This document shows positions 1 through 48,281 of a DNA stretch of 64,000 nt, in pieces. The DNA comes from a bacterium. Lineage in GTDB: Bacteria; Electryoneota; B3-LCP. Each line of letters opens with the position of its first letter. Within the stretch, counting starts at the first letter, position 1. The DNA is taken from assembly GCA_026394195.1 (NCBI GenBank), contig JAPKYS010000043.1, positions 83,131 through 147,130 of the forward strand, in the 5' to 3' direction. A program made the translations under genes and the position numbers. The notes under the pieces are model-generated. The model was not told the origin of the DNA, did no database searches, and saw only the letters and a list, made by a program, of their open reading frames with translations.

Positions 1-554
1 GAATCGGCTGGGGGTTGGTGACGGACATTCAACCACCCGATTATGAAACCCGTTTGGCTATTCTGCAGAAACGCTCTGACATGGAAGGAATCTACCTTCC
101 AGAAGAAGTGGCTGATTTTCTGGCTCGATACTTCGTTGATAACATTCGAGAACTGGAGAGCGCTTTGATCAGACTGGTGGCGCACAGTTCTATTACCGGG
201 ACCGACCTGACTCTTCAGCTTACCCAGGAGATCTTCAAAAACCAGATCCGTACGACCTCGGTCAGTATCAGCGTCGAGATGATTCTGCAGAAGGTGGCTG
301 AGTTCTACAAGATACCTCTTGACTCGCTGCTTGCACATAACCGCAAGAAGGAAATTGTTTGGGCCAGGCAGGTTGCCATGTACCTCTGCACAATACTGAC
401 CAACGCTTCACTGGAAAGCATCGGTGTGCACATTGGTAACCGCGATCATTCTACCGTGATTCATGCCCGTAATCTGGTGGCGAAGAAAACCGCATCAAAT
501 CAGGATATATTCGGTGAGATAGAGAGTATTAAAGCAAACATATCAACTCACTGA
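1..554 (+). CDS. dnaA: Chromosomal replication initiator DnaA, C-terminal part (domains III-IV); the 5' end is truncated by the window edge
   Basis: The reading frame is open from base 1. The DnaA-box-binding domain IV is present (LAHNRKKEIVWARQVAMYLCTILTN...GNRDHSTVIHA). dnaN lies immediately downstream. Confidence 0.9.
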   Translation, partial: IGWGLVTDIQPPDYETRLAILQKRSDMEGIYLPEEVADFLARYFVDNIRELESALIRLVAHSSITGTDLTLQLTQEIFKNQIRTTSVSISVEMILQKVAEFYKIPLDSLLAHNRKKEIVWARQVAMYLCTILTNASLESIGVHIGNRDHSTVIHARNLVAKKTASNQDIFGEIESIKANISTH

Positions 555-844
555 ACTTTTACGGTGTGGGTAACCTGGAATAACTTGTGGATAAGTCACA
601 CTTATCCACAGCTAAAATTCAAATTAGCCTGTGTTTCTGAGTTATGAGTTACTTATTAACAAAATGCAAGTACTGCTTCAACAATTTTTCAACGACGTTC
701 ATAAGGATGACGCATTGAGTTTAAACTACCTATTAACATAAAATGAAGACTTACTACTACTGTTTTTCTCTCTTTCTCTTTAAGAAGAAAAGCTAATAAT
801 AGTCACTTCACAAACGTAAAATAGGAAAACAGAGGGAGCACAAG
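555..844. promoter_or_regulatory. Candidate oriC and DnaA-regulatory region. Perfect DnaA boxes lie at 586-594 (TGTGGATAA, minus orientation) and 602-610 (TTATCCACA), and a one-mismatch box at 565-573. An AT-rich DUE-like stretch follows at 610-830.
   Basis: The consensus TTATCCACA was read directly from the sequence. The spacer between dnaA and dnaN is AT-rich relative to the flanks. Confidence 0.6.
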
Positions 845-2970: not shown

Positions 2971-3108
2971 CCTCCTGCGCAGAAAATCTATCATCTTGTA
3001 CGCCCGCAATGGAATCCAGGGTTGAATGGAAGGGCGCTTACGGCATTGCTTCAGCAGGACAAGATAAAAAAGCGGCAAACCTTTTTTTAACTGGGGAGGG
3101 TTCGCGCG

Positions 3109-9328: not shown

Positions 9329-9360
9329 TGCAGATTTGGTGGCACGAGGCACGAGGCACG
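9329..9360. repeat. Tandem heptamer array (GGCACGA x4) immediately after the stop codon
   Basis: Direct reading: GGCACGAGGCACGAGGCACGAGGCACGAG. Confidence 0.9.
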
Positions 9361-9479
9361 AGGCACGAGAATTCCGTAGTCGGGGTCGTCCCTGACCCTG
9401 ACGTTGCTAATTTTTTTAAAGCAATGAATCAAGCACTCGTTGACATCAAGTCGTTGAAATGACTAAAAAAAGCAGACTT

Positions 9480-13157: not shown

Positions 13158-13479
13158 ATATTTCATTCCCTTGTTTATATCTATGTTGGTTATGCGTCAG
13201 GTCTCCGCTGCGCTATAGAACTGCCGCAACGATATTCCCAGCCTTGTCGGATTCCGGACGCAGGCTAAAGCCTTTGCCGGAATGACAAGGTTCTCTTAAC
13301 TGACTGCTGATTGCGCTTATACTTGGTTACTTGTTCACTTGTTCACCTGGTTACTATTTCAAGGGCGTCCCTACCGGTCGCCCTTGGTGTTTTCAGCACC
13401 ATTCATGTGATATTTTTAACTTGTTTTTCCGCTAAATTTTCTTTATATTCTTAGACTTCTAAAAAACCTCGAGGAACAA

Positions 13480-15315: not shown

Positions 15316-16533
15316 ATGAGCATCAGTATACTGGCCAGGTCCATCCAGGAATCACCGACGTTAGCCTTAAACGAGCAGGCCAGACTCCTGCGCGAGAAAG
15401 GCGAGGCGGTGGTCCATCTGGGAGCGGGTGAACCGAAAAACAAAGCTCCCATCAACGCGATCTTGACGTCGGTCGCCAAGCTGAATGCCGGCGACATCAA
15501 GTACACTCCCACCGATGGCATCCCCTCTTTGAAGAAAGCCATCATCCGCTACACCGAAGAGAACTACGACCGTCTGCCGGCACCCGAGCAGGTGATGGTG
15601 TCGGGCGGAGCCAAACAATCACTGTGGAACTTGCTCTTCACCATCTTAAATCCTCAGGATGAAGTCGTTATCATCGCACCGTATTGGGTGAGCTACCCGG
15701 AAATGATCAAGATGTGTTACGGCATCCCGGTGGTGGTCACTCCGGAAGACGGCGGCTTCTACCCCCGCATGAAAGAGATCGAGCAGGCAGTTAGTTCGTA
15801 CACCAAAGCGATCATCATCAACAGCCCCAACAACCCGTCCGGAGTGATGTACCCTGAAAGCTTCATCGCAGAAATCGTCGAATACTGCGAGAAAAAGGGC
15901 ATCTACCTGATCATGGACGACATCTACCACAAGCTGATTTTCGACGGAAAAACCGTCATTACGCCCTACAAGTACACCAGCAAGAATATCGAAGAAACCA
16001 AGGTGATCACCATCAACGGGATCTCGAAACTGTACGGCATGACCGGTTTCCGCATCGGCTGGCTCGTCGCTCCCAAGCAATTAGTTGATATCATGATCAA
16101 TGTCCAGGCGCAGACCACTTCCTGCACCTCGCTGGTCTTGCAGGCAGCCGCCGAAGGCGCATTGACCGGCTTGCAGAGCGTCGTCGAAACTCTGCGGCTG
16201 ACTCTGGAAAACAATCGCAACGTCATGCTGGCGGAGTTGAAAACTTTCAATGGGATTCGCGTCACCAAACCGGATGGAACCTATTACTGCCTGCCTGATT
16301 TCAGCGCTTATGGAAAAGACTCGGTAAAGTTGTCCAAAATGTTGCTGCAAAAGGCTCTCGTGGTGACGGTACCCGGCAAGGAATTCGGTATGGAAGGCCA
16401 TCTGCGGCTGAGCTATGCGACCACGGTCAAGGACATCAAGGAGGGCATTGAGCGCATGCGCTGGGCATTGGATCCGAATTCGCCGAACGAAATATACATC
16501 GGTGAAAGAAAACTGGTGAGGGACTGGCTATGA
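15316..16533 (+). CDS. Class I/II pyridoxal-phosphate aminotransferase (aspartate/aromatic type)
   Basis: 405 aa. Fold-type I PLP aminotransferase motifs including the SKLYGMTGFRIGW lysine region. Confidence 0.88.
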   Translation: MSISILARSIQESPTLALNEQARLLREKGEAVVHLGAGEPKNKAPINAILTSVAKLNAGDIKYTPTDGIPSLKKAIIRYTEENYDRLPAPEQVMVSGGAKQSLWNLLFTILNPQDEVVIIAPYWVSYPEMIKMCYGIPVVVTPEDGGFYPRMKEIEQAVSSYTKAIIINSPNNPSGVMYPESFIAEIVEYCEKKGIYLIMDDIYHKLIFDGKTVITPYKYTSKNIEETKVITINGISKLYGMTGFRIGWLVAPKQLVDIMINVQAQTTSCTSLVLQAAAEGALTGLQSVVETLRLTLENNRNVMLAELKTFNGIRVTKPDGTYYCLPDFSAYGKDSVKLSKMLLQKALVVTVPGKEFGMEGHLRLSYATTVKDIKEGIERMRWALDPNSPNEIYIGERKLVRDWL

Positions 16534-18170
16534 ACAATCTCTTAAATATAAAAACTCCCTGCGAAGGTCAAGCTCTGGCGCAAAAAGCCTTCTACGGAAT
16601 CGAAAATCACGGGCTCGCCAACCTGCGCCAGGTCTATTGGAACCTGCCCACCGAAGCGCTCTATGAAGAGATCGCCTTCCGCGGCGAAGCGAAAATCACC
16701 CATATGGGACCGATCCTTGCCTGGACTGGAAAACACACGGCTCGTTCCGCCAACGACAAATTCGTGGTCAAAGAAGGCACCACCGAAGACAAAATCTGGT
16801 GGGGCGAGTACAATCGTCCTTTCAGCGAAGACAAGTTCAACGACCTGTTCAACCGCATGCAGGGCTACCTGCAGGGGCGCGACGTCTTTGTGCAGGACTG
16901 CTATGCCGGAGCTGATCCTAATTACCGGATGCCCATCCGCGTCATCACCGAATTAGCCTGGCACAGTCACTTCGCTCGCAACATGTTCATCCCCACGAAA
17001 ACGCTGAACGAGATGCAGCGACACGTCCCGGATTTCACGATCCTGGCGCTTCCCGGGTTCAAAGGAATTCCGCAGATTGACGGTACGGCTTCCAACACTT
17101 TCATCGTGTTGAATTTCGCCGCAAAGATGTGCATCATCGGGACGACGGCCTACGCCGGTGAAATCAAGAAGTCTGTCTTCTCGATTCTGAATTACCTGCT
17201 GCCGTTGCAGGGCGTTATGCCCATGCACTGCTCGGCCAATATCGGCCCGAAAGGCGACACCGCTCTCTTCTTCGGTCTTTCCGGAACCGGCAAAACGACC
17301 CTGTCGGCTGACCCGGGCCGCGGGCTGATCGGCGACGATGAACACGGCTGGTCCGATGACGGCATCTACAACTTTGAAGCGGGCTGCTACGCCAAGGTGA
17401 TCGCCCTATCCCCCTCTGCAGAACCGCAAATCTACGCCTGCACCCAGAAGTTCGGCACTATCCTGGAAAACGTCCCCTTTGATCCGGTCACCCGCAGAAT
17501 CGATCTGGACGATGAATCCATCACCGAAAATACCCGCTGTTCCTACCCGATGGAATACATCGACAATGCCGTGCCGGAAAAGATGGGCGGACATCCCAAG
17601 AACATCATTCTGCTGACCTGCGACGCCTCGGGCGTCATGCCCCCCATCGCCAAACTGACCCCGGATCAGGCCCTCTACCAATTCATCTCGGGGTATACCT
17701 CCAAGATCGCCGGCACCGAAGTCGGTCTGGGCAAGGAACCGGAAATGACCTTCAGTACCTGCTTCGGAGGTCCCTTCATGGTGCACCATCCTTACTTCTA
17801 TGGCGATCTGCTGAAACGCAAGATCCTGAAGCACGATGCTCACTGCTGGCTGGTCAACACCGGCTGGGTGGGAGGCAAGTACGGCATCGGCAAGCGCATC
17901 AGCATCAAGTACACCCGCGCTCTGCTGAACGCGGCGTTGGACGGCAAGCTGCTCAAGGTGGAATACAAGCAGGACCCGGTCTTCGGTTTCTCCGTGCCCA
18001 TGTCCTGCCCGGACGTGCCGGACAGCGTCCTGAACCCGGCTGAAGCCTGGTCCGACAAGAACGCCTACATGAAGAGCTACAAGGAACTGGCGTCCCGCTA
18101 CATCGAGAACTTCAAGAAGTTCGAAGACGGCTGCCCGCCGGAAGTCAAAGCGGCAGGGCCGAAGAGGTAA
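16530..18170 (+). CDS. pckA: Phosphoenolpyruvate carboxykinase (ATP)
   Basis: Kinase-1a/Walker motif FFGLSGTGKTTLS and PEPCK-ATP signature regions. 4-nt overlap with the upstream aminotransferase. Confidence 0.93.
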   Translation: MNNLLNIKTPCEGQALAQKAFYGIENHGLANLRQVYWNLPTEALYEEIAFRGEAKITHMGPILAWTGKHTARSANDKFVVKEGTTEDKIWWGEYNRPFSEDKFNDLFNRMQGYLQGRDVFVQDCYAGADPNYRMPIRVITELAWHSHFARNMFIPTKTLNEMQRHVPDFTILALPGFKGIPQIDGTASNTFIVLNFAAKMCIIGTTAYAGEIKKSVFSILNYLLPLQGVMPMHCSANIGPKGDTALFFGLSGTGKTTLSADPGRGLIGDDEHGWSDDGIYNFEAGCYAKVIALSPSAEPQIYACTQKFGTILENVPFDPVTRRIDLDDESITENTRCSYPMEYIDNAVPEKMGGHPKNIILLTCDASGVMPPIAKLTPDQALYQFISGYTSKIAGTEVGLGKEPEMTFSTCFGGPFMVHHPYFYGDLLKRKILKHDAHCWLVNTGWVGGKYGIGKRISIKYTRALLNAALDGKLLKVEYKQDPVFGFSVPMSCPDVPDSVLNPAEAWSDKNAYMKSYKELASRYIENFKKFEDGCPPEVKAAGPKR

Positions 18171-18195
18171 GGCAAAAGGAAAAAGGTAAAAGTAA

Positions 18196-18228
18196 AAAGG
18201 GGCGATCCGGGTGGGTCGCCCTTTTTGA
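18196..18228 (+). terminator. Rho-independent terminator (GGGGCGATCCGGGTGGGTCGCCC + T-tract)
   Basis: A GC stem followed by TTTTTG. The same stem sequence recurs after other genes. Confidence 0.6.
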
Positions 18229-18262
18229 TTTAAAAAAAACCGCCCACCACCTAAAAATCTCT

Positions 18263-18291
18263 TGACAATACCCGATTGATTCGCTATATTG
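18263..18291 (+). promoter_or_regulatory. Sigma70 consensus promoter TTGACA-N16/17-TATATT
   Basis: Read directly: cTTGACAatacccgattgattcgcTATATTg. Confidence 0.55.
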
Positions 18292-18364
18292 AATATAGGG
18301 AGGCACAAACTTCAAACAAAACCTGATTTGAGTAAACATCTATAATCAAATGTGGAGACCCGCC

Positions 18365-20410
18365 ATGAAGAAGAGCTGGATACTCGCAACGGCAGCCGTG
18401 ATCATAATCGCTGGCGTTTTTACCCCTTACACCAAGGTTCACGCCATTGTCGATCTGGGTTGGGCGATCCACCAACCGGGCCCAGCCCATGGTGATGATT
18501 CCCCTGTTGGCGTCGAAGTGGATGCTTCAGGAAATGTCTACGTAGTAGGACATAGTTACCACGATGAAATCACCGGATATGACTATCTGACTATCAAATA
18601 CACACCTGATGGGGCAGTATTGTGGAGATCGTATTATGATAGCCCATCGGAAAATTCTTGGGATGTTCCTATGGATTTTATCCTCAATGATCAAGGGAAT
18701 GTTTACATCACGGGAGAGTGCATCGGGGACGAAAATAATCTTGATTTTGCTACCGTCTGCTTCAATTCGCAGGGACGGCAGTTGTGGGAAGCCATCTACG
18801 CCGGTCCAAACCAATTCAATGATGAGGCGCAAGCTCTCGCGCTGGACGCGGCCGGTAACCTTTACGTTACGGGTCGCTCGTACACTTCCGTAGATAATGC
18901 GGATTTCGCCACTATCAAGTACAATTCGCTGGGCGAACAACAGTGGGTGGCGCTCTACAACGGTCCGGGTAACCGCACGGACTATCCTGTAGATATTGCG
19001 GTCGATGGAACCGGAAATGTATATGTCACAGGAAATAGCGATTCTGATCCATCGCCGCGTTTCAATTACGATTTCGCCACGATTAAATATAATTCAATGG
19101 GCGTACAGCAATGGGTAGTATACCACAACGGTCCCTACAATGGGAATGATTACCCGGTGGCGTTAGCCCTGGATGGTGACGCCAACGTTTATGTGACCGG
19201 CCAGAGCCAGAATGCATCGAACTCAGACTGCATAACCGTGAAATACAACTCGAATGGGGTTCAACAGTGGGTACACGGGTACACCGAGACTCAGGTTGGT
19301 TATCCCATACCCTTTTCGATGAAGTTGGATCGTCAGAATAACGTCGTCATTGCCGGTTGCTACTCGGGAGAAACGGGAAGCAAATACTTCACTCTGAAGC
19401 TGAATAGCGCCGGGGTGCAGCAGTGGGCCAGACTATACCAGAGTAGTGGCACCTGGGGGGAACGAGCCAACGCAGTCGCGGTTGACCGCGACCTGAACGT
19501 TTATGTAACGGGTGAGAGTCACACTTCTTCGTGGTTTCCCACTTGCACTACATTAAAATATGACCAGGCAGGTACTTTGAAATGGACTGCTTACTATGAC
19601 TCGGATCTTGACGCTCTGAAGAGTGGGGTGGATTTAGCCATCGATCGACACGGAAACGTCCTCGTCGCTGCCCAATTTATGTTCATGGAGCAGGCAGATT
19701 ACGATTTTCTCACGCTTAAGTACCACCAAGTTCAGGGTGACGTGGCTGTAGGAATGATTCCGACAGTTTCTCCAATTCAGATCCCCCCAACTGGAGGCAG
19801 TTTTAGCTATCATCTCACCACGGTCAACGGCGTTCGCGACAGTTTGCCGGTTGATCTGTGGTGGCAGATCAACTTTCCAGGCTTATATCCGCGAGTAGTT
19901 AACATAGGATTACAATCACGGGATCTCCCCTTGGACACTTGCGTCATCGTTCGTACCCAGAACGTCTCCGCCAACGTTCCGGCAGGGACATACCAGTATG
20001 CTGCCTATATTGGTGATTTCCCCGAAATAGTTTGGGCGTCCGATACTCTGACCTTTGAGAAACAATCAGACAGTTCCGACCCGTGGGTAACAACTCAAGA
20101 TGAGAGTTTTTCAGGTCCATTTGAAGAGACAGAGCCTGCCACTCCTACGCAGTTCGAACTTTTATGCGTTTTCCCCAACCCCTTCAACCCCAGCACCACC
20201 ATCAGCTACGCGTTGCCGACAGCGGGTCTGGTGAATCTATCCGTCTACGACATTTCGGGGAAGAAGGTGGTGGAGCTGGTGAATGGAACCAGAGACGCAG
20301 GAAAGCAGGAGGTCACTTTCGACGGTTCAAATCTCCCATCGGGAATTTATTTCTGCCGCCTGCAGGCGGGGGTGTGCACCGCGGTGGAGAAGATGGTGCT
20401 GCTGAAATAG
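18365..20410 (+). CDS. SBBP beta-propeller repeat protein with a T9SS C-terminal sorting domain
   Basis: Repeated NVYVTG.S....D..TIKYN..G...W...Y.G units. C-terminus ends ...GIYFCRLQAG..TAVEKMVLLK. Confidence 0.8.
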   Translation: MKKSWILATAAVIIIAGVFTPYTKVHAIVDLGWAIHQPGPAHGDDSPVGVEVDASGNVYVVGHSYHDEITGYDYLTIKYTPDGAVLWRSYYDSPSENSWDVPMDFILNDQGNVYITGECIGDENNLDFATVCFNSQGRQLWEAIYAGPNQFNDEAQALALDAAGNLYVTGRSYTSVDNADFATIKYNSLGEQQWVALYNGPGNRTDYPVDIAVDGTGNVYVTGNSDSDPSPRFNYDFATIKYNSMGVQQWVVYHNGPYNGNDYPVALALDGDANVYVTGQSQNASNSDCITVKYNSNGVQQWVHGYTETQVGYPIPFSMKLDRQNNVVIAGCYSGETGSKYFTLKLNSAGVQQWARLYQSSGTWGERANAVAVDRDLNVYVTGESHTSSWFPTCTTLKYDQAGTLKWTAYYDSDLDALKSGVDLAIDRHGNVLVAAQFMFMEQADYDFLTLKYHQVQGDVAVGMIPTVSPIQIPPTGGSFSYHLTTVNGVRDSLPVDLWWQINFPGLYPRVVNIGLQSRDLPLDTCVIVRTQNVSANVPAGTYQYAAYIGDFPEIVWASDTLTFEKQSDSSDPWVTTQDESFSGPFEETEPATPTQFELLCVFPNPFNPSTTISYALPTAGLVNLSVYDISGKKVVELVNGTRDAGKQEVTFDGSNLPSGIYFCRLQAGVCTAVEKMVLLK

Positions 20411-20478
20411 TCTTCAACTTTGAACTTTTAACTTTCAACTTGTAACTTCAAAAGGGGCGCAGAGTTTGCACCCTTTTT
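20411..20478 (+). repeat. Conserved post-stop element (AACTT-type heptamer array CAACTTTG-AACTTTT-AACTTTC-AACTTGT-AACTTCA) plus terminator hairpin; copy 1
   Basis: Near-identical copies at 22269-22340 and 22630-22700. Confidence 0.8.
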
Positions 20479-20497
20479 CACTATTTGCAGAAAAGAC

Positions 20498-20526
20498 TTG
20501 ACTTTTAGGCGCTTTTTGCTTATATT
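20498..20526 (+). promoter_or_regulatory. Sigma70 consensus promoter TTGACT-N17-TATATT
   Basis: Read directly. Confidence 0.55.
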
Positions 20527-20591
20527 ACGCTTGCCGAAAGGTTGAAATCCAAGTTTTTTAAAACAACAACATAATTGTGGAGGGACGTCTG

Positions 20592-22268
20592 ATGAGCATC
20601 TCAATAATACGCACCGGGGCAGCTGTAATCGTTGTTACCTTGCTGACTGTGCTTCCCGCCTTCAGTCAGGTTACCCAGGAATGGGTCCGGTACTATGATG
20701 GATCCGGAAACCAGAACGATCAAGCTTCCGCGATGGTTGTGGACCCGATGGGGAACGTCATCGTGACCGGTCAGTCCCAGGGCGAGTGGCTGACGATAAA
20801 GTACGATTCGGATGGTAATACACTGTGGTCGATACGTGAAGACGAAGGAGAATGGCCGACCGCGCTGGCGGTCGACGAAATCGGCGACATCTACCTTACC
20901 GGTTATAAATATACCGGATCGGCGATAGAATTATTCAACATTATTACCATAAAGTACAATGCTGACGGAGATCTGCTTTGGGGCGCCTCATACAATGGAC
21001 CCAGCAATCTGGACGATTTGGCCACCGCGATCTGTCTGGATGATTCGGGCTACATTTACGTCACAGGCTCAACAGTCTATTCCTTCGGTACCCAGGACCT
21101 GATTGTAATAAAGTACGACTCAACAGGAGGTTATTCCTCCACCTGGCCAAATACTGGCTTGGGAATTGGAGTTAGAATCTATAATGGGGGCGGCAGCAAC
21201 GGTTACGATTGCGGGCAGTCAATAGCCGTGGATCACGCCGGAAACGTGTATGTAACCGGAGAATCAGCGTCGGGAGGGTCAGGATCGAATATGGACTATG
21301 CGACCCTAAAGTACAGCGCCAGCGGAAACCAGCTCTGGGCAGCGCGTTATGATGGTCCGGTCAACGGAACTGATACGCCGGTTGGCTTGGTTCTGGACGA
21401 TCTGGGTAACGTTTACGTAGCCGGTACCTCCCTGGGCTTCATGAACCAGGGTAATTATCGTAATGACTACGCAACCGTCAAGTATGACGGCGACGGCAAT
21501 CAGATGTGGGCAGCGCGCTACGATGGTCCGATACAATATGAAGATTACTGCCACGACATTGCCATTGATGCTGCCGCCAATATTTATGTGACCGGATGCG
21601 CAGCCAATTCAAGTTATGATATAGCTACAGTAAAGTATAATTCCAATGGAACAGAATTATGGGTTGCCATCTACGACGGTTCTAACCATAATGTAGATCA
21701 AGGCAACACTTTAATGGTTGATCAGGCTGAGAACGTCTACGTGGCAGGTCAAGTTTCAGCCGGCTCATGCGGCTGGGATATTGCGACGGTCAAATATGAT
21801 GCGGCTGGGACTCAAATTTGGGCCATCGAATTCAATGCCGCTGATAGCCTGGGTGACAGACCCGTAGCGATAGCCCTGGATTCAGAAGATAACGTATATG
21901 TGCATGGGACTTCCGGAACAGACGGTGCCTGGGATAACTATGTTACGATCAAATATAACCAGGTTAATGGGATTGAACCAGGGTGGTCTTCGGGTAATCG
22001 ACCTATCAGCTATAAGCTGAATTCCAATTTCCCCAACCCCTTCAACCCCACCACCACGATTAGCTATTCTCTACCGACAACGAGTTTGGTGAATCTGTCA
22101 ATTTATGATGTGTCAGGGAAAAAGGTGGCTGAGTTGGTAAATGGAATGAGAGCAGCAGGAGCCAAGAAGATCACCTTCGACGGCTCTAACCTCACCTCCG
22201 GCATCTATTTCTGCCGATTGCAGGCAGGGGAGTACTCAGCAGTGCAGAAGATGATTCTCCTGAAATAG
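20592..22268 (+). CDS. SBBP beta-propeller repeat protein with a T9SS C-terminal sorting domain
   Basis: Same repeat architecture as the previous gene. C-terminus ends ...GIYFCRLQAGEYSAVQKMILLK. The ATG at 20592 is preceded by GGAGGGA. Confidence 0.8.
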   Translation: MSISIIRTGAAVIVVTLLTVLPAFSQVTQEWVRYYDGSGNQNDQASAMVVDPMGNVIVTGQSQGEWLTIKYDSDGNTLWSIREDEGEWPTALAVDEIGDIYLTGYKYTGSAIELFNIITIKYNADGDLLWGASYNGPSNLDDLATAICLDDSGYIYVTGSTVYSFGTQDLIVIKYDSTGGYSSTWPNTGLGIGVRIYNGGGSNGYDCGQSIAVDHAGNVYVTGESASGGSGSNMDYATLKYSASGNQLWAARYDGPVNGTDTPVGLVLDDLGNVYVAGTSLGFMNQGNYRNDYATVKYDGDGNQMWAARYDGPIQYEDYCHDIAIDAAANIYVTGCAANSSYDIATVKYNSNGTELWVAIYDGSNHNVDQGNTLMVDQAENVYVAGQVSAGSCGWDIATVKYDAAGTQIWAIEFNAADSLGDRPVAIALDSEDNVYVHGTSGTDGAWDNYVTIKYNQVNGIEPGWSSGNRPISYKLNSNFPNPFNPTTTISYSLPTTSLVNLSIYDVSGKKVAELVNGMRAAGAKKITFDGSNLTSGIYFCRLQAGEYSAVQKMILLK

Positions 22269-22340
22269 TCTTCAACTTTGAACTTTTAACATTCAACCTG
22301 TAACTTCAAAAGGGGCGATCCGGGTGGGTTGCCCTTTTTG
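22269..22340 (+). repeat. Conserved post-stop AACTT-heptamer element plus terminator; copy 2
   Basis: TCAACTTTGAACTTTTAACATTCAACCTGTAACTTCAAAAGGGGCGATCCGGGTGGGTTGCCC. Confidence 0.8.
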
Positions 22341-22493
22341 TATGCAATTTTCTGCACGAAGCTGAAACCCGCGGCATTGAGGTTGTTACAGGAGCAACTG
22401 TTTCGATATGGAGCCTGTCCAATAATACGGGAGGGAAGCAATCAACCCTTATCTGTATCATTTGGATGCAGGCAATTCAAAGGAAAGTGAACC

Positions 22494-22649
22494 ATGAAAT
22501 CGTACCGAACTTTCGCAGTAGCAATCGTTACAGTTTTGATAACCTTCACGATTGCGCAGGCTCAGTGGACCCAGGCCTGGTGCCCCACAGCTCTGCTATG
22601 GGTTCGCTTAATCCCCCTTGCCTCCCCCTCCCCAACTTTCAACTTTTAA
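22494..22649 (+). pseudogene. Remnant of a secreted-protein gene: a signal peptide plus about 25 codons, running straight into copy 3 of the post-stop element
   Basis: MKSYRTFAVAIVTVLITFTIAQAQ... then the frame ends inside CAACTTTCAACTTTTAACATTCAACTTATAAC. This is consistent with an internal deletion. Confidence 0.55.
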
Positions 22650-22700
22650 CATTCAACTTATAACTTTAAATTACAACGGGCGGTCAGATGACCGCCCGTC
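22630..22700 (+). repeat. Post-stop AACTT-heptamer element, copy 3 (diverged), plus a terminator hairpin (GGGCGGTCagatGACCGCCC)
   Basis: Direct reading. Confidence 0.7.
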
Positions 22701-22830
22701 TGCGTTGGTGCGTTTGATCGCAGACCGTACCTACAGCCCCAAAGGAAACCATTTCGGCAGTCCTATTCCAAGGCTGAAATAATACGGGTGCGGTGGGTCT
22801 GCCGAAGGTTCTTTGACATAGGAGGTTAAA

Positions 22831-23859
22831 TTGGCGACGCTTTACAAGCGACGAAGTAGGGACGGTACGAACACTTGGTATGTCCTCTATCAGGAGGGCA
22901 ACAAGTCCCGCATGCGATCAACCGGTACGAGCGATAAAACTCTCGCTCATGAGGTGATGAAAAAGATCAAGGAGGATGCGGTGAGAAGGAGTCGCGGATT
23001 GGAACCGATAGAAACCGTGGAGTCGATTCTTCTATCTGAGTTTATTGCTGTGTATTTGACCGAACGGAAGAAGGATGGCAAAATGCCCCGGACTATCGAA
23101 ACCGATTCTTACGCCTTGGGTAGGTTACTCAACCGCATTGGTGACTGTTCTCTAATTTCAATCACCAAGGAATCAGCCCGAAAGTACAAAGGCTACAAGC
23201 TCGAAAACGTTAAACCAGTTTCAGCAAGTATTGAGCTACGGTCAATCCGGGCAGCCTTCAACTGGGCTTTAGAAAAGCCTGGGACTAAATACCTATATAG
23301 CAACCCCTTCAAGCAGAAGGGATTAATCCCAACCGTACCAGGTAGAACAATCCCACCGATTTTCTCACCCGAGGAAAAGGCGAGGTTTCTCGAGTCAATT
23401 GAAGATGAGAATCACAAACGGCTCTTCAAGTTCTTCTTGCTTACGGGTTGCCGGAGAGCTGAAGCGGTGAATTTGAAATGGGCTGACATCGATTTTGAGC
23501 AGAAGCAACTCACCTTTCGCCGAACAAAAACGAAAAGAGATCGGGCTATTCCGATCAACCTCGAACTAATGCAGATACTGATCGCACTTGATCGTACTCA
23601 GGCGAAACCTTTCAGTTTTGGCTCAGATTGGATTTCGCACTTGTTCGAAAGGTATCTGCGCCGGGCAAAGATTGATAGACCGATGTCCCTACATGGTCTA
23701 AGACACACTTGTGCTTCCGACATGGTTCGAGCCGGGGTCCATCTAACCAAGATCCAGAAGTTCCTCGGACACACTTCAGTTAAAACGACAGAGATTTACA
23801 CTCACGTTTTACCTGAAGATTTGCGGGAAGCTGCGGAGGTACTTTCCTGTGTCGGTTAG
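22831..23859 (+). CDS. Tyrosine-type site-specific recombinase/integrase
   Basis: C-terminal catalytic region HGLRHTCASDMVRAGVHL...LGHTSVKTTEIYTHV. Adjacent to tRNA genes. Confidence 0.85.
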   Translation: MATLYKRRSRDGTNTWYVLYQEGNKSRMRSTGTSDKTLAHEVMKKIKEDAVRRSRGLEPIETVESILLSEFIAVYLTERKKDGKMPRTIETDSYALGRLLNRIGDCSLISITKESARKYKGYKLENVKPVSASIELRSIRAAFNWALEKPGTKYLYSNPFKQKGLIPTVPGRTIPPIFSPEEKARFLESIEDENHKRLFKFFLLTGCRRAEAVNLKWADIDFEQKQLTFRRTKTKRDRAIPINLELMQILIALDRTQAKPFSFGSDWISHLFERYLRRAKIDRPMSLHGLRHTCASDMVRAGVHLTKIQKFLGHTSVKTTEIYTHVLPEDLREAAEVLSCVG

Positions 23860-23968
23860 TCGCGTGCAAGGATTTTGCAAGGTTAATCCACAGAAATACC
23901 CTAAAAACACCTCAAAAACCGTAAGATGAGTTCAGGGTAAGTTCTTGTTTATTTGCGTTTTAAGCTTG

Positions 23969-24041
23969 TACGCCCGCTGGGGCTCGAACCCAGAACCTAC
24001 GGCTTAGAAGGCCGTTGCTCTATCCATTGAGCTACAGGCGC
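23969..24041 (-). tRNA. tRNA-Arg (anticodon TCT)
   Basis: Minus-strand read GCGCCTGTAGCTCAATGGATAGAGCAACGGCCTTCTAAGCCGTAGGTTCTGGGTTCGAGCCCCAGCGGGCGTA. Cloverleaf deduced by eye. Confidence 0.8.
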
Positions 24042-24085
24042 AATCGAGCAATCAGGCGATGGATGATGCTGATAAAGCACATTTG

Positions 24086-24160
24086 TCGGGGCGACTGGAT
24101 TTGAACCAGCGACACCCTGGTCCCAAACCAGGTGCGCTACCAGGCTGCGCTACGCCCCGA
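24086..24160 (-). tRNA. tRNA-Pro (anticodon TGG)
   Basis: Minus-strand read CGGGGCGTAGCGCAGCCTGGTAGCGCACCTGGTTTGGGACCAGGGTGTCGCTGGTTCAAATCCAGTCGCCCCGA. Confidence 0.8.
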
Positions 24161-24354
24161 AAGTAATTACGAATGATGAATGATGAGTTATGAGTAGAAA
24201 ACGTCGGAGTGATCCGAACTTATCAAGACGACACCCTGGTCCAAATCCGTTAGAGGGTGAGCCGAAGCAAACGGCGACGCTTGATCTATCCAAAGTTAGC
24301 TTAATAATATACAACTTAAACAACCCTTTGTCAAGTACTTGCCGCAGAATCCTC

Positions 24355-36599: not shown

Positions 36600-36650
36600 G
36601 GAAATAATTGGAGATTGGAGATTGAAGATTGAAGATTGAAGAATTAAGAG
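36600..36650. repeat. Tandem heptamer array (GATTGGA x2, GATTGAA x3, GAATTAA) directly after the stop codon
   Basis: Direct reading. Confidence 0.9.
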
Positions 36651-36654
36651 GGGG

Positions 36655-36900
36655 AGTTTCCGGCGAAATAGCCTTGTCATTCCGGCGAGGCCCGCCCCAT
36701 TGGGGTCCGGAATCAGACAAGGCGGGGGAAGAGTAGCTCACTGTCGTGCTGTCGACTCTCCGCAAGAGGTAGGGTGGACTAGCGAAGCGTAGTCCACCAC
36801 CCCATCTAATTTATTTAATGGTGGACTACACCCTGCGGGTTAGTCCACCCTACTTCTACCAGCCACCAGCAACTATAGGGGTTGCGTCAGGTCTTGCGGA
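36655..36900. repeat. Block of dispersed small palindromic elements (CCTTGTCATTCCGGC; GCTGTCGACTCTCCGCA; GGTGGACTA...TAGTCCACC hairpins)
   Basis: Motifs recur at 13255-13290, in inverted orientation at 45795-45835, and as AATCAGACAA at 45757. Confidence 0.6.
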
Positions 36901-43446: not shown

Positions 43447-43547
43447 TCACGGGGCACGAGATGCGAGTCACGAGATAAAACAACAAAAGGGCGGCCCGGC
43501 GGGTCGCCCTTTTTTGATGAAAATCTTTCCCCAGCCGAATTATTTAC

Positions 43548-43667: not shown

Positions 43668-45629
43668 ATGCGCAGTTCACCTTTCTTTATTCTTGCGGTT
43701 CTGCTTCTGACCGCCACCACTGCCTTCGCTCAGAACCTAACTGTCGAAGTCACACCGCAAATCAACACCGTTGAGATCCCACCTGAAGGCGGATCGTTCA
43801 GCTTTTATGTTACGGTCGCCAACCACGAACCATTACCCCAGCAAGTCACCGCATGGTGCCTCCTTACCACCCCGATGGGAGACCAACGAAACATCCTCCT
43901 TCCCGTGACATTTGACCTTGCGGCCGTGCAAATCCAAGAGCGATACTATACACGATTCGTTCCAGCAGCTTCGCCTGTTGGAAATTATGTATTGACGGCG
44001 AACATCGGCATCTACCCCAATACCATTTGGGATAGCGATCAATGTACCATTAGTAAGCTGAACCCGCCGGTGTGGGTAGCGCGCTATAGTAGCCCCGGGA
44101 ATTTTGGAGATGGAGCTAATTCCATCGCATTGGACAGCAGCGGCAATGTCTATGTGACGGGTCATTACCAAGGGGGTGGGACTGATTACGACTATGCCAC
44201 CATCAAGTACAACTATGCCGGGCAGCAACAGTGGGTAGTGCGCTACAACGGACCGGATAACGGCTGGGATTACCCTACCAGCCTGGCGGTGGACGGCAGC
44301 GGCAACGTCTACGTAACGGGTGGAAGTGATGGAAGCTGGACTTATGCCGACTACGCCACCATCAAGTACAATTCCACCGGAGTTCAGGAGTGGGTGGCGC
44401 GCTACAACGGGCCGGGAAATAGCTCTGATGGGGCTACCAGCCTGGCGGTGGACGGCAGCGGCAACGTCTACGTGACAGGTGAAAGCTGGGGAAACGGGAC
44501 CGCTGCCGATTACGCCACTGTCAAATACAACTCCGCCGGGCAGCAGCAGTGGGTGGCGCGCTACGATGGTACTGGAAATGATGATGATTGCGCTAATTCC
44601 ATCGGATTAGACGGCTTTGGCAACGTCTGCGTTACGGGCAGCAGTCATGGTAGTGGGTCTGGCAGGAACTACGTCACCATTAAATACAACGCCAACGGCA
44701 ATATGCTCTGGGTGGATCGTTATATTGGATCGTGGGATGATGAAGCTAAATCTCTCACAGTGGAAAGTGGTGGTAACGTCTACGTGACCGGTAAAAGCGA
44801 TGGAGACTATGGAACTATCAAATACGACGCTAACGGTAATCGGCTTTGGATGGCTCGCTACAATGGACCGGCGAACATAAACGATGAAGCAAATTCCATC
44901 GCTCTGGACAGTTTCGGTAACGTCTACGTGACGGGCCACAGTTATAGTAGTTGGACTGGTGGGGACTACGCCACGATTAAATATGACGTCGATGGCAATC
45001 AACTCTGGGTCGCGCGCTACAATGGATCTGGAAATTATGAAGATGCAGCTAGATCTCTCACAGTAGACTCCTACGGTAATGTCTATGTGACAGGCTATAG
45101 CCAGGGAATTTGGAATAATATGGACTATACCACTATCAAATACGATTCTAACGGCAATCAGCTTTGGGTGGCGCGCTACAATGGGCCGGGGAATAATTTT
45201 GACGCGGCTTCTTCACTCGCTTTGGATACTTTTGGCAACGTTTATGTGACGGGCAGGAGCGTAGGAAGCAGGACTGATAAAGACTTTTGCACCATCAAAT
45301 ATTCCGCTACTGATCTGCCCAACTGGCAGCAGCCAGTGGCTACGGTTTTCGGCGCGCCGCTGCCAGCGGAATACCGTTTGGAGCAGAACTACCCCAATCC
45401 CTTCAACCCCACCACTACCATCAGTTATCAGCTTCCATCCAGAAGCCAGGTGAAGTTGGAGGTGTTCGACGTTTCCGGGCGGTTGGTTACCACTTTAATC
45501 AACGGCTGGAGGGAGGCGGGGTCGCATGAGGTGACCTTCGACGGGTCGGGGTTAGCGGCGGGGGTGTATGTTTACCGACTGCAGGTGGGGGAGTATACCG
45601 GGGTGCAGAAAATGGTGCTTTTAAAATAG
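43668..45629 (+). CDS. SBBP beta-propeller repeat protein with a T9SS C-terminal sorting domain
   Basis: About 10 repeats of GNVYVTG.S...DYATIKYN..G...WVARYNGPGN. C-terminus ends ...GVYVYRLQVGEYTGVQKMVLLK. Confidence 0.8.
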   Translation: MRSSPFFILAVLLLTATTAFAQNLTVEVTPQINTVEIPPEGGSFSFYVTVANHEPLPQQVTAWCLLTTPMGDQRNILLPVTFDLAAVQIQERYYTRFVPAASPVGNYVLTANIGIYPNTIWDSDQCTISKLNPPVWVARYSSPGNFGDGANSIALDSSGNVYVTGHYQGGGTDYDYATIKYNYAGQQQWVVRYNGPDNGWDYPTSLAVDGSGNVYVTGGSDGSWTYADYATIKYNSTGVQEWVARYNGPGNSSDGATSLAVDGSGNVYVTGESWGNGTAADYATVKYNSAGQQQWVARYDGTGNDDDCANSIGLDGFGNVCVTGSSHGSGSGRNYVTIKYNANGNMLWVDRYIGSWDDEAKSLTVESGGNVYVTGKSDGDYGTIKYDANGNRLWMARYNGPANINDEANSIALDSFGNVYVTGHSYSSWTGGDYATIKYDVDGNQLWVARYNGSGNYEDAARSLTVDSYGNVYVTGYSQGIWNNMDYTTIKYDSNGNQLWVARYNGPGNNFDAASSLALDTFGNVYVTGRSVGSRTDKDFCTIKYSATDLPNWQQPVATVFGAPLPAEYRLEQNYPNPFNPTTTISYQLPSRSQVKLEVFDVSGRLVTTLINGWREAGSHEVTFDGSGLAAGVYVYRLQVGEYTGVQKMVLLK

Positions 45630-45724
45630 CCGCTGGTTGCTTGTTGTTGGTGGCTGGTAGGGGCGTTTAATTAAACGCCCTGTCGAGGAACACAAAGGTG
45701 AGGGCGATCCACCTGAGGCGGGTC

Positions 45725-45835: not shown

Positions 45836-45920
45836 GACATGCTTCGTACGACTACGTCGTCCAGAAGCATGCCACCCACGGCCTTTTCCTGATGGCTGAA
45901 TGCTGATTGCTGACTGCTTC

Positions 45921-48281
45921 TCACTCCAGCTCCACAATGGTCACGCCGAAATCGCCTTCTTCTGGCCTGCCGTAGCGGAAGGATTTGATACCGAGGCTTC
46001 GTTCCAACAACTCCCGCACTCGGGTACGTAACGCACCGGTCCCCTTGCCGTGAATGATGCGCACCGATTTCCAGCCCGCTAACGACGCCTCACTGAGGTA
46101 CTTTTCGACGGTGAACTCGGCTTCGTCGCCGGTCATGCCGCGCAGGTCGATTTCGTAACCCGGCCGTGTCGAATCGCTTTCCGCCAGATTCAGGTTGACG
46201 CTCGCTTTGATTTTATCTTCGGCAGGAATATCCACCTTCGTCAACCGATCCACGTCCATCCAGATGTGGATCCCCCCCATTTCCAGCTTGGCTTCCTGAC
46301 CATCCCTACGCAGCGCCATTACCCGCACCGTCCCCTTCAGATCTTCGACCTTGACCCGGTCACCCGCCTGCAAGCCGGGTTCAGGCGGCGGAGTTTCCTC
46401 TTCCTTCGGGGCGCTTAGTATCTGTTCAACCTTCTGCTTCTGGTATTTAATCACGGTATGCGCCTGTTTGATCGCTTCCTTTGAAGCCTGTGTCTCGCGG
46501 ATGGATTTGACGGCGGCTTCGATGCTGCGATTGGCGTCGGCTAAAAGCTCCTTCGCCTTGACGGCGGCTTCGTGCAGGCGCTGCTTTTCGGTGTCTTTGA
46601 TCTCTCTGATACGGTCGGCGTAGAGTTTCCTCAACGCTTCCTGTTCGGTGCGCTTGATTTCAGCCTGGCGGCGAGTCTCTTCGGATATCCGGAGCGATTC
46701 ATTCAGCCGGGTCAGCAGATCTTCGAGACGGCTGGTCTGTTCCCCCAGGAAGCGCTGAGCGACCCGCAGAACCTCTGCGGGGAAACCCACCCGGGCGCCG
46801 ATCTGCAGGGCATAAGAACTTCCCGGTATTCCCGAATGGAAGCGAAATGTCGGCTGCAAGGTTTCGCCATCGAATTCCATGCTGCCGTTGAAGATACCTT
46901 CGGCTTCATGAGCGAAGGCTTTCAAGATCCCCTGGTGGGTGGTGGCGACCGTCAGAGCTCCCTGGGCTTGCAGTTCCAGCAGAGCGGCTCTGGCTATGGC
47001 GGTCCCTTCAGCCGGATCGGTGCCGGAACCGACTTCGTCCAGCAGCACTAACTTGGGTTGGCGTGGGTCCTGCAGCGCCGCTTTCAGGCGTATCAGGTGC
47101 GACGTGAAAGTCGAAAGATCCTGTTCCAGCGATTGCGGATCGCCGATGTCGCAGTGCAGGGCCGCCAGCACGGGAATCTGCGTGCCTTCGCCGGCGGGAA
47201 CCAGCAGACCGCAGGCGGCCATCAGGCAGAGCATCCCGACGGTCTTCAGTGTAACCGTCTTGCCTCCGGCGTTGGGACCGGTGATGATTAAGACCTCGCC
47301 GTCTGCTCCGCCCAAAGTTAAATTCAGCGGCACCACGCTTTTGCCCAGCTTTAGACCCAGCAGAGGGTGCCGGGCATTGACCAGCTTGATAAAAGGCGCT
47401 TCGGTCATTTCCGGAGGCACACAGTCCAAGCGGATCGCCAGGCGCGCTCGGGCGTAAATGCTGTCCAGTTCGGAAAGAATCGCCAACGAAGCATATATTT
47501 CCGGCAGCCGGGAACGGAATTTATCGCAGAGCTCCAACAGAATCCTGAAGATTTCCCGCCTCTCTTCGTTGTCCAGCCTGCGCATAACGTTGCTGACGGC
47601 AATGGCTTCCAGCGGTTCGACGAAAACAGTAGCTCCGGAAGCGGATTCGTCCTGGATGGCTCCGGAAACCCGCCCTCGATGTTCAGCCTTTACCGGAATC
47701 AACAGCTTGCCGTCGCGATATGCCAGAGCTTCATCCTGAGCGTAATTCAAGCGCTTCCATTCCCTTAGTACCTGCTCCAGGATCTTGTGCAAGTTGCGCG
47801 CTTCGGATTCTTTCTGCCGGCGAATTCGCTTCAATTCCGGGCTGGCGTCATCGCGTACGTCTCCGGCAGGATCGAAGATTTTATCCACCAGAGCGGTCAA
47901 TTCCCCGAAATCGCCCAATTGCTTTGCCAGGCTGACCAGTCCGGGATAGTCTTCCTTCTGTTCAGCGAAAAATGCAGCCAACTTCCCCGAAGCCGCGACC
48001 AGGTCTCTTAAAGGGGGGTATTCGTGACGATCCAAAACCGACCCGGCGGGCGATAGTTTCTTCAAGGTGGCAGATACGTCACTGAGTCCCTGTATCGGCA
48101 GCGATTTACGCCCTAACAGGCGCGCCATTTCATCGACCAGCGCCAATTCCCGGCGGATGGCGGTAATGTCTGCCAGCGGTTCCAATTCCAGAATGCGCCG
48201 CCGGCCCAGTTCGGAAGAAGCTTCTCCCGCACAGGTTTCCAGCAGTTTATCCAATTCCAGCAGTTCAAATGAGGCTTGCAT
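45921..48281 (-). CDS. mutS2: Endonuclease MutS2 (MutS domain III/ATPase plus a C-terminal Smr domain)
   Basis: Walker A GPNAGGKTV, the MutS signature and a C-terminal Smr domain (IDLRGMTGDEA...IIHGKGTGALR). Confidence 0.9.
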   Translation of the reverse strand: MQASFELLELDKLLETCAGEASSELGRRRILELEPLADITAIRRELALVDEMARLLGRKSLPIQGLSDVSATLKKLSPAGSVLDRHEYPPLRDLVAASGKLAAFFAEQKEDYPGLVSLAKQLGDFGELTALVDKIFDPAGDVRDDASPELKRIRRQKESEARNLHKILEQVLREWKRLNYAQDEALAYRDGKLLIPVKAEHRGRVSGAIQDESASGATVFVEPLEAIAVSNVMRRLDNEERREIFRILLELCDKFRSRLPEIYASLAILSELDSIYARARLAIRLDCVPPEMTEAPFIKLVNARHPLLGLKLGKSVVPLNLTLGGADGEVLIITGPNAGGKTVTLKTVGMLCLMAACGLLVPAGEGTQIPVLAALHCDIGDPQSLEQDLSTFTSHLIRLKAALQDPRQPKLVLLDEVGSGTDPAEGTAIARAALLELQAQGALTVATTHQGILKAFAHEAEGIFNGSMEFDGETLQPTFRFHSGIPGSSYALQIGARVGFPAEVLRVAQRFLGEQTSRLEDLLTRLNESLRISEETRRQAEIKRTEQEALRKLYADRIREIKDTEKQRLHEAAVKAKELLADANRSIEAAVKSIRETQASKEAIKQAHTVIKYQKQKVEQILSAPKEEETPPPEPGLQAGDRVKVEDLKGTVRVMALRRDGQEAKLEMGGIHIWMDVDRLTKVDIPAEDKIKASVNLNLAESDSTRPGYEIDLRGMTGDEAEFTVEKYLSEASLAGWKSVRIIHGKGTGALRTRVRELLERSLGIKSFRYGRPEEGDFGVTIVELE

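Follow-up and report, generated by a model that had tools for sequence, protein, structure and literature searches.

AACTTNN heptamer arrays at the ends of SBBP cargo genes in an Electryoneota genome: a probable 3' untranslated module beside an orphan integrase

Introduction

Do neighbouring genes that end in the same repeat beside a tyrosine recombinase form a gene-cassette system, or does the repeat simply belong to the way in which each gene ends? This question is raised by the region at 18.1-24.2 kb of a 64-kb stretch of DNA (the window, to which the locus analysis refers) from a bacterium of the lineage Electryoneota, B3-LCP (contig JAPKYS010000043.1, positions 83,131 to 147,130, GenBank assembly GCA_026394195.1). 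Two genes for putative cargo proteins of the type IX secretion system (T9SS), both with SBBP beta-propeller repeats, are followed by an array of AACTTNN heptamers and a GC-rich hairpin, here called the AACTT element. A third array follows a short open reading frame (ORF), and a tyrosine integrase gene and two transfer RNA (tRNA) genes lie downstream, as an initial annotation of the sequence had correctly noticed. We consider it probable that the element is the heptamer-bearing 3' untranslated region (UTR) and terminator of independently transcribed cargo genes, homogenised by gene conversion and unlinked to the integrase.

Results and Discussion

The AACTT element follows two independently promoted cargo genes

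Genes 1 and 2 each possess a sigma-70-like promoter (Table 1); that of gene 1 agrees with the consensus at 11 of 12 positions. The profiles PF18962 and TIGR04183 scored above their own cutoffs in both genes, which thus encode the sorting domain of T9SS type A cargo, and their signal peptides were assessed by inspection. The gene 2 protein is a 100% match to an NCBI entry from a metagenome-assembled genome, annotated as 'T9SS type A sorting domain-containing protein [bacterium]'. For gene 1 there is a second possible start codon at 18350.

Directly 3' of the TAG stop codon, copies 1 and 2 of the element read TCTTC AACTTTG AACTTTT AAC(T/A)TTC AAC(T/C)TGT AACTTCAAAAGGGGCG. The array of copy 1 begins 1-6 nucleotides (nt) past the stop, according to the way in which its first unit is delimited. 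A window search with the pattern AACTTNNAACTTNNAACNT gave 11 overlapping matches at the three array sites (0.3 expected by chance) and a twelfth match, containing 2 mismatches, elsewhere. Tandem Repeats Finder (TRF) reported a period of 7 with 4.1-5.0 copies at 20413-20448 and 22633-22667. All three arrays have the same, direct orientation. In predicted folds they are essentially unpaired, with a GC stem after each. AAAA on the 5' side and TTTTT on the 3' side flank the hairpins of copies 1 and 2, which thereby show the GC stem-loop and U-run of intrinsic terminators. The copy 3 hairpin has a strong stem (z = -4.2) with merely GUCUGCGUU in place of a good U-run. A near-identical element of about 45 nt had been described after both genes in the initial annotation. 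This holds for the heptamers, to which the near-identity is limited (Table 1); the hairpins of the three copies are unlike one another in sequence. The array has no match in Rfam, whether at the gathering threshold or at E<=1; in these searches of the window only the tRNAs and two sub-threshold small RNA matches were obtained.

The AACTT element would accordingly be composed of five degenerate AACTTNN units (about 40 nt, predicted to be unpaired) between the stop codon and a hairpin of the Rho-independent type, forming the putative 3' UTR of an SBBP/T9SS cargo gene that is transcribed on its own.

Conservation of the arrays and the third copy

Outside the C-terminal sorting domain, in the propeller regions, the proteins of genes 1 and 2 have only about 33% amino-acid identity, and therefore the two genes are old paralogues and not recent duplicates. 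A 3'-UTR or terminator module shared by a recently duplicated gene family had been offered as an alternative to cassettes; the module of paralogues stands, the recent duplication does not. DNA homology between the two genes is restricted to a sharp block, 20165-20460. The sorting domains show 76% nucleotide identity and 60% identity at third codon positions, whereas copies 1 and 2 agree at 50 of the 53 positions that run from the stop codon into the first part of the hairpin (P ~2e-8 under the third-position rate). Variant positions are distributed as a mosaic across the three AACTT copies, which are spaced 1.9 and 0.36 kb apart. Concerted evolution through short-tract gene conversion between these direct repeats is most probably responsible for the near-identity of the arrays. 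The three copies would be alike because the genes are local paralogues sharing a 3' module of about 295 nt, made up of sorting domain and array, and conversion would keep the array part nearly identical.

The 51-codon ORF, whose stop is overlapped by array copy 3, had been regarded as a decayed cargo gene with an internal deletion. ORF and array are indeed present. Residues 1-29 resemble the signal peptide and the 'AQ.TQ.W' start of SBBP proteins (E 0.002-0.01, compared with 120 N-termini). The ORF carries the motif 'AQAQWTQAW', diverges past residue 29 and then enters the array. Its 51 amino acids include no sorting domain, and blastn and tblastx comparisons of the remnant region with genes 1 and 2 revealed no similarity beyond the array. 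Since this N-terminal likeness is accompanied by no other homology to genes 1 and 2, a 5' remnant of a third paralogue that lost its interior is a plausible, modestly supported reading of the ORF. Copy 3 would then mark the paralogue with the deleted interior.

Period-7 arrays at other gene ends of the window

The AACTT arrays fit the description of heptanucleotide simple sequence repeats (SSRs), being tandem head-to-tail units of 7 nt, intergenic, and accompanied by many other period-7 loci. For a census of the window we used TRF and a custom period scan with a strict filter; furthermore, all intergenic regions were read. Under the strict filter all seven period-7 arrays were intergenic, with intergenic DNA comprising 14% of the window. 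Periods 4-6 and 8-12 yielded 0-3 matches each under the same filter, largely in coding sequence. The layout stop codon - period-7 array - hairpin was observed at about ten other gene ends, and period-7 arrays at a greater distance from gene ends lie at 13320 and 41026. The pckA terminator, like those of genes 1 and 2, has AAAA on its 5' and TTTTT on its 3' side.

In the initial annotation, occurrence of the element after many unrelated genes of the genome without a link to the recombinase, together with a locus invariant across strains, was named as the finding that would speak against cassettes. The observations come close to this, as the class of array plus terminator follows pckA, a GNAT acetyltransferase gene, mutS2 and a DUF3800 gene. 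Because a period-7 array with a terminator follows so many unrelated genes, the AACTT element is to be seen as ordinary and not as part of a cassette system.

The four T9SS sorting domains encoded in the window can be aligned as DNA up to the stop codon (AAATAG), but the arrays behind them are unrelated (AACTTNN, GCTGGTT, CACGAGA); the arrays thus turn over faster than the sorting domain. Most plausibly, period-7 arrays would arise by replication slippage in tolerated non-coding DNA, as we infer following the proposal of Mrazek et al. 2007, as reported in PMC4679880.

Two other roles for the arrays were considered and rejected. Stop-codon backstops in all frames would fit AACTT, ATTGAAG and GAATGAC, but not the arrays in general, because GGCACGA and GCTGGTT hold no stop codons. 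Promoters of the Bacteroidetes type do not apply, the genes here using TTGACA/TATATT promoters.

Some units recur. The CCACCAG array at 36850-36870 is the reverse complement of the GCTGGTG-type array at 45632-45660, and GGCACGA (9341-9369) resembles the CACGAGA-like array (43447-43475). In a distant relative (L010) CACGAAGG repeats were found 3' of pckA. The choice of the heptamer unit may perhaps be non-random.

Table 1. Positions of the genes, promoters, arrays, hairpins and tRNA genes in the window
Feature	Position	Strand	Remarks
GGCACGA x4.1 array	9341-9369	+	12 nt past stop of DUF3800 gene; GC palindrome next
pckA	16530-18170	+	Pfam PEPCK_ATP; 5' neighbour of gene 1
AAGGAAA-type array	18169 on	+	overlaps pckA stop; terminator at 18195-18227
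Gene 1 promoter, sigma-70-like	18262-18290	+	TTGACA-17-TATATT
T9SS cargo gene 1	18365-20410	+	SBBP beta-propeller repeats, C-terminal Por_Secre_tail
AACTTNN array copy 1	20411-20452	+	units AACTTTG AACTTTT AACTTTC AACTTGT AACTTCA
Gene 1 terminator hairpin	20450-20478	+	AAAAGGGG-C-GCA...TGC-A-CCCTTTT, then T-run
Gene 2 promoter, sigma-70-like	20498-20526	+	TTGACT-17-TATATT
T9SS cargo gene 2	20592-22268	+	SBBP, Por_Secre_tail
AACTTNN array copy 2	22269-22310	+	95% identity to copy 1
Gene 2 terminator hairpin	22307-22340	+	32/33 identity to pckA terminator 18195-18227
51-codon ORF	22494-22649	+	putative remnant of third paralogue; stop overlapped by array copy 3
AACTTNN array copy 3	22633-22670	+	89% identity to copy 1; likeness confined to array
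Copy 3 GC hairpin	22676-22699	+	GGGCGGTC-AGAT-GACCGCCC, weak U-tract
Tyrosine integrase	22831-23859	+	Pfam Phage_integrase
tRNA-Arg(TCT)	23968-24041	-	
tRNA-Pro(TGG)	24085-24159	-	
ATTGAAG x5 array	36607-36642	+	9 nt past stop of GNAT acetyltransferase gene
CACGAGA-like array, weak	43447-43475		after M6-peptidase T9SS gene; read by eye, no TRF call
GCTGGTT-type array	45632-45658	+	2 nt past stop of third SBBP/T9SS gene (43668-45629); hairpins next
GCAGTCA-type array	45889-45918	-	2 nt past stop of mutS2 (45921-48281)

The integrase and its relation to tRNA-Arg

Aligned along its whole length, the integrase shares about 27% identity with phage integrases. Compared with the models of integron integrases it reaches 89 bits for TIGR02249 (cutoff 265) and 65 for NF011946 (cutoff 435), and with those of DNA invertases 21-23 bits (cutoffs about 221). 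Homologues of 59-71% identity are part of conventional integrative modules (loci L203-L205). In L203 an excisionase-like ORF is situated 5' of the integrase gene (int). L204, from a candidate division LCP-89 bacterium, shows a primase-like gene, an excisionase-like gene with an HTH_17 domain and then int. L205, holding the closest homologue (71%), has two HTH_17 genes followed by an int that abuts tRNA-Arg(TCT) as in the window. None of the three loci contains AACTT arrays.

In the window int and tRNA-Arg(TCT) converge with their 3' ends 108 nt apart, which places int in the tRNA-adjacent position of an integrative element. Because the L205 int adjoins tRNA-Arg(TCT) in the same arrangement, this tRNA gene is a likely attachment site of the integrase family. 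Unlike in L203-L205, no HTH_17 excisionase-like gene or other element gene was found 5' of the integrase. No att-type repeat of the tRNA-Arg 3' end was found across the window, and homology to the L203 element begins at 22806, only 25 nt 5' of int. For these three reasons the integrase, which is of the type found in phages and integrative and conjugative elements, appears to be an orphan remnant of a conventional integrative element. It would have no mechanistic link to the arrays.

At 2995-3007, in an intergenic region 21 kb upstream, 13 nt (CTTGTACGCCCGC) repeat the tRNA-Arg 3' end (23965-23977) exactly. The match is probably due to chance, as about 0.2 such matches are expected and the interval holds housekeeping genes. 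A decayed 3' half of tRNA-Pro was observed at 24203-24248, about 45 nt upstream of the intact gene; its 20-nt core is 90% identical to 24110-24129. Between the two copies lies an array of GAATGAT heptamers (24165-24196), and a TTGACA-17-TATATT promoter (24334-24306, minus strand) is located upstream of both. The decayed copy may be the scar of an earlier integration or duplication.

Alternative explanations

It is very improbable that the cargo genes are mobile cassettes, with the AACTT heptamers and hairpin as recombination sites of the adjacent tyrosine recombinase. This idea, put forward as integron- or shufflon-like logic in the initial annotation, drew on the conserved element, present in three direct copies where genes end beside such a recombinase, and on one apparently deleted gene. 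The likeness to integron cassettes, co-oriented genes that each close with a structured repeat in the vicinity of a tyrosine recombinase, is however superficial. The locus has no IntI-type integrase, the scores being far below the IntI (89 vs 265) and invertase (about 22 vs about 221) cutoffs, and the homologues of the integrase reside in HTH_17-bearing elements, the closest by tRNA-Arg(TCT), that lack such arrays. Furthermore, the heptamers are tandem and direct without the imperfect palindrome of attC sites, their hairpins are not conserved between copies, and genes 1 and 2 each have their own TTGAC(A/T)-17-TATATT promoter instead of being promoterless cassettes under a common promoter (Pc). 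The recombinase lies at the distal end, co-oriented with the genes and beside a tRNA gene. The 51-codon remnant retains its 5' end together with its own 3' array, and site-to-site excision would not leave the two joined in this way. Inversion of the shufflon type is impossible because the AACTT repeats are direct; inverted sites and a Rci- or invertase-type recombinase were not found at the locus. The specific AACTT element was found neither in viral contigs nor in any fetched locus of another organism. Mobility of another kind would be involved if the 4.1-kb block of genes 1 and 2 had been inserted by pckA through a single crossover in the terminator (Campbell-type), or if it were leftover cargo of the degraded tRNA-Arg element, the arrays having travelled along. 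The terminator at 18195-18227 has a second copy in direct orientation at 22308-22340, a shift of 4113 nt downstream, which differs from it at one of 33 nt, no chance matches being expected; the two-gene block is thus exactly bracketed by direct repeats. GC content falls from 0.54-0.58 in pckA to 0.47-0.51 across 18-24 kb, and in a pckA-based genome scan, in which relatives reached at most 79% identity, synteny 3' of pckA was kept in none. Nevertheless we hold such an insertion to be doubtful, as the block is without mobility genes and no att-like tRNA-Arg repeat exists between pckA and gene 1 or elsewhere of relevance. Terminators here share a GGGCG...CGCCC consensus, so the terminator duplication could be the footprint of conversion between terminators as well as of a single-crossover insertion. 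Moreover, an insertion concerns the origin of the block and is compatible with the explanation of the element as 3' UTR and terminator.

The remaining alternatives assign a function to the heptamers. The AACTT array might be a cis-regulatory site in the 3' UTR, to which for instance an RNA-binding protein or a small RNA attaches, and which is under purifying selection and co-regulates stability or termination of the SBBP cargo mRNAs. Such a site would agree with the 50/53 identity of the 3' UTR against 60% at the adjacent third codon positions (P ~2e-8), but copies lying 0.4-1.9 kb from one another would be just as alike under gene conversion. All three copies show their variant heptamers in the same order, so that no slippage has occurred since their divergence, and the predicted folds leave the arrays single-stranded and accessible. 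Unrelated heptamers, however, follow the other two T9SS genes of the window, including the third SBBP paralogue with its alignable sorting domain, and arrays of the same form stand after housekeeping genes. Rfam gave no match, and outside this genome AACTTNN arrays keep to no particular orientation or context. On balance a regulatory site of this kind seems unlikely. Somewhat more broadly, the order stop codon - heptamer array - hairpin might be a selected 3'-end module of the lineage, serving as an unstructured spacer or protein landing pad for termination or mRNA stability, with the AACTT version under purifying selection and co-regulating the SBBP genes. We give this little credence too, although, if true, it would explain an array conservation far above that of synonymous sites.

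Several points weigh against the explanation that we favour, a heptamer 3' UTR homogenised by conversion. Gene conversion is what we infer, and the same 94% identity could come from a functional 3'-UTR site kept by purifying selection. About 38 nt are common to copy 3 and the other copies, which is near the lower limit for RecA-dependent conversion. The arrays of the window are less structured than random 35-nt windows (median minimum free energy -0.55 vs -5.2 kcal/mol, P ~9e-4), but this is largely due to base composition (reduced alphabets); fold energies are no stronger than -0.6 kcal/mol for 8 of 12 arrays, and the G-rich GGCACGA and GCTGGTT can pair. The period-7 census of this genome covered 64 kb. 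The collections that were searched contain no orthologous locus; for gene 2 the best homologue has about 44% identity. Exact-protein look-ups of pckA, gene 1 (with both starts) and the remnant gave no match. Gene 2 and the integrase matched only short Logan contigs of a single sample, SRR20698647 (100% and 99.9% identity), and these contigs end inside the arrays (repeated 30-mers) or the tRNA, so that alternative adjacencies are neither confirmed nor excluded by them.

Occurrence in other genomes and comparison with published heptamer repeats

In 1.19 Mb around pckA loci from 80 unrelated genomes we counted 30 arrays of period 7, one of period 8 and none of periods 9-11. The density of period-7 arrays in the window is about fourfold that of these genomes. 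AACTTNN arrays were detected in metagenomes of many habitats, on at least 120 unrelated contigs. They are often perfect and often occur beside other heptamer arrays or as inverted array pairs; orientation and gene context are inconsistent. A sorting-domain protein was encoded in 2 of 80 metagenome AACTT loci and adjacent to the array in neither. On these grounds we rejected the idea that AACTT arrays accompany T9SS genes in other organisms. In loci L093, L100, L113, L116, L119, L141 and L152 an AACTTNN array faces an inverted AAGTT array tens of nt away. Such facing arrays would form long hairpins made wholly of heptamer repeats.

The feature belongs to a kind that is already known, heptanucleotide SSRs in 3' UTRs before intrinsic terminators. 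According to Mrazek et al. 2007 (via PMC4679880), heptanucleotide repeats are the most abundant class of long SSRs in most surveyed genomes, and polymerase slippage was proposed as their origin. Rehm et al. 2015 (PMC4692102) report heptanucleotide repeats by stop codons from Xanthomonas and Nostoc and remark on the shortage of detailed studies of such repeats. With these long SSRs, the short tandemly repeated repetitive sequences of heterocystous cyanobacteria and the Xanthomonas/Nostoc repeats GGGAATC and GGGGA(T/C)T, the arrays of the window share tandem 7-nt units in few to several, often degenerate copies, a strongly intergenic position, many loci per genome and the lack of an established function. 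They differ in that the heptamers are specific for each locus instead of following one genome-wide consensus, that the AACTT unit is G-poor and incapable of forming G-quadruplexes, and that the arrays consistently precede a terminator hairpin.

Intergenic direct heptamer repeats of the type TAACTGA were described from marine Beggiatoaceae, Cyanobacteria and some Bacteroidetes, in which other heptamer arrays share the intergenic region (MacGregor 2015, PMC4679880). TAACTGA repeats stand mostly just 5' of start codons and a role in regulating translation was proposed, whereas the arrays of the window are found at 3' ends before terminators. With intrinsic terminators preceded by an A-tract, copies 1 and 2 and the pckA terminator have the GC stem-loop and the AAAA/TTTTT flanks in common. 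Copy 3, however, lacks a good U-tract, and a heptamer spacer is no defining part of a terminator. Only three features are mildly unusual here: each locus has its own heptamer, conservation of the AACTT array exceeds the neutral level, and a 33-nt terminator is duplicated around the two-gene block.

Further observations in the window

The third SBBP gene contains a 159-nt tandem repeat at 44178-44632 (2.4-2.9 copies, 74-78% matches), and its propeller blades are thus still recognisably repeated as DNA. Short GC-rich palindromic or inverted motifs, resembling repetitive extragenic palindromic elements, are common to distant intergenic regions; examples are GTCGGGGTC...GACCCCGAC, GCCGGAATGACAAGG and GTGCTGTCGACTCTCCGCA. 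Pairs of recurring GC-rich motifs are located at 9381-9406/40975-41006, 13276-13290/36672-36686 and 36746-36764/45810-45828.

Upstream of gene 1, an aminotransferase gene and pckA form a pair (15316-18170) with an overlapping ATGA junction, found with 63-82% amino-acid identity across the loci L002-L081. These include metagenome-assembled genomes labelled Bacteroidota, Chloroflexota, Acidobacteriota, Zixibacteria, Ignavibacteria and others, and downstream synteny is never kept. The distribution suggests horizontal spread of the pair or mislabelled bins. At the beginning of the window (15-844) the C-terminal end of dnaA (Bac_DnaA_C) is encoded. The following intergenic region contains facing DnaA-box-like motifs, TGTGGATAA ... 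TTATCCACA, and is therefore probably the replication origin.

Conclusions

The locus calls for caution, as conserved repeats that end tandem genes near an integrase can mimic a cassette system. The window illustrates cleanly how heptanucleotide repeats can be positioned in a systematic manner after the stop codon and before the terminator, with a unit that differs from locus to locus. If cultured or deeply sequenced, the organism may become a test case for the role of 3'-UTR arrays and for the preference of bacteria for 7-nt units.

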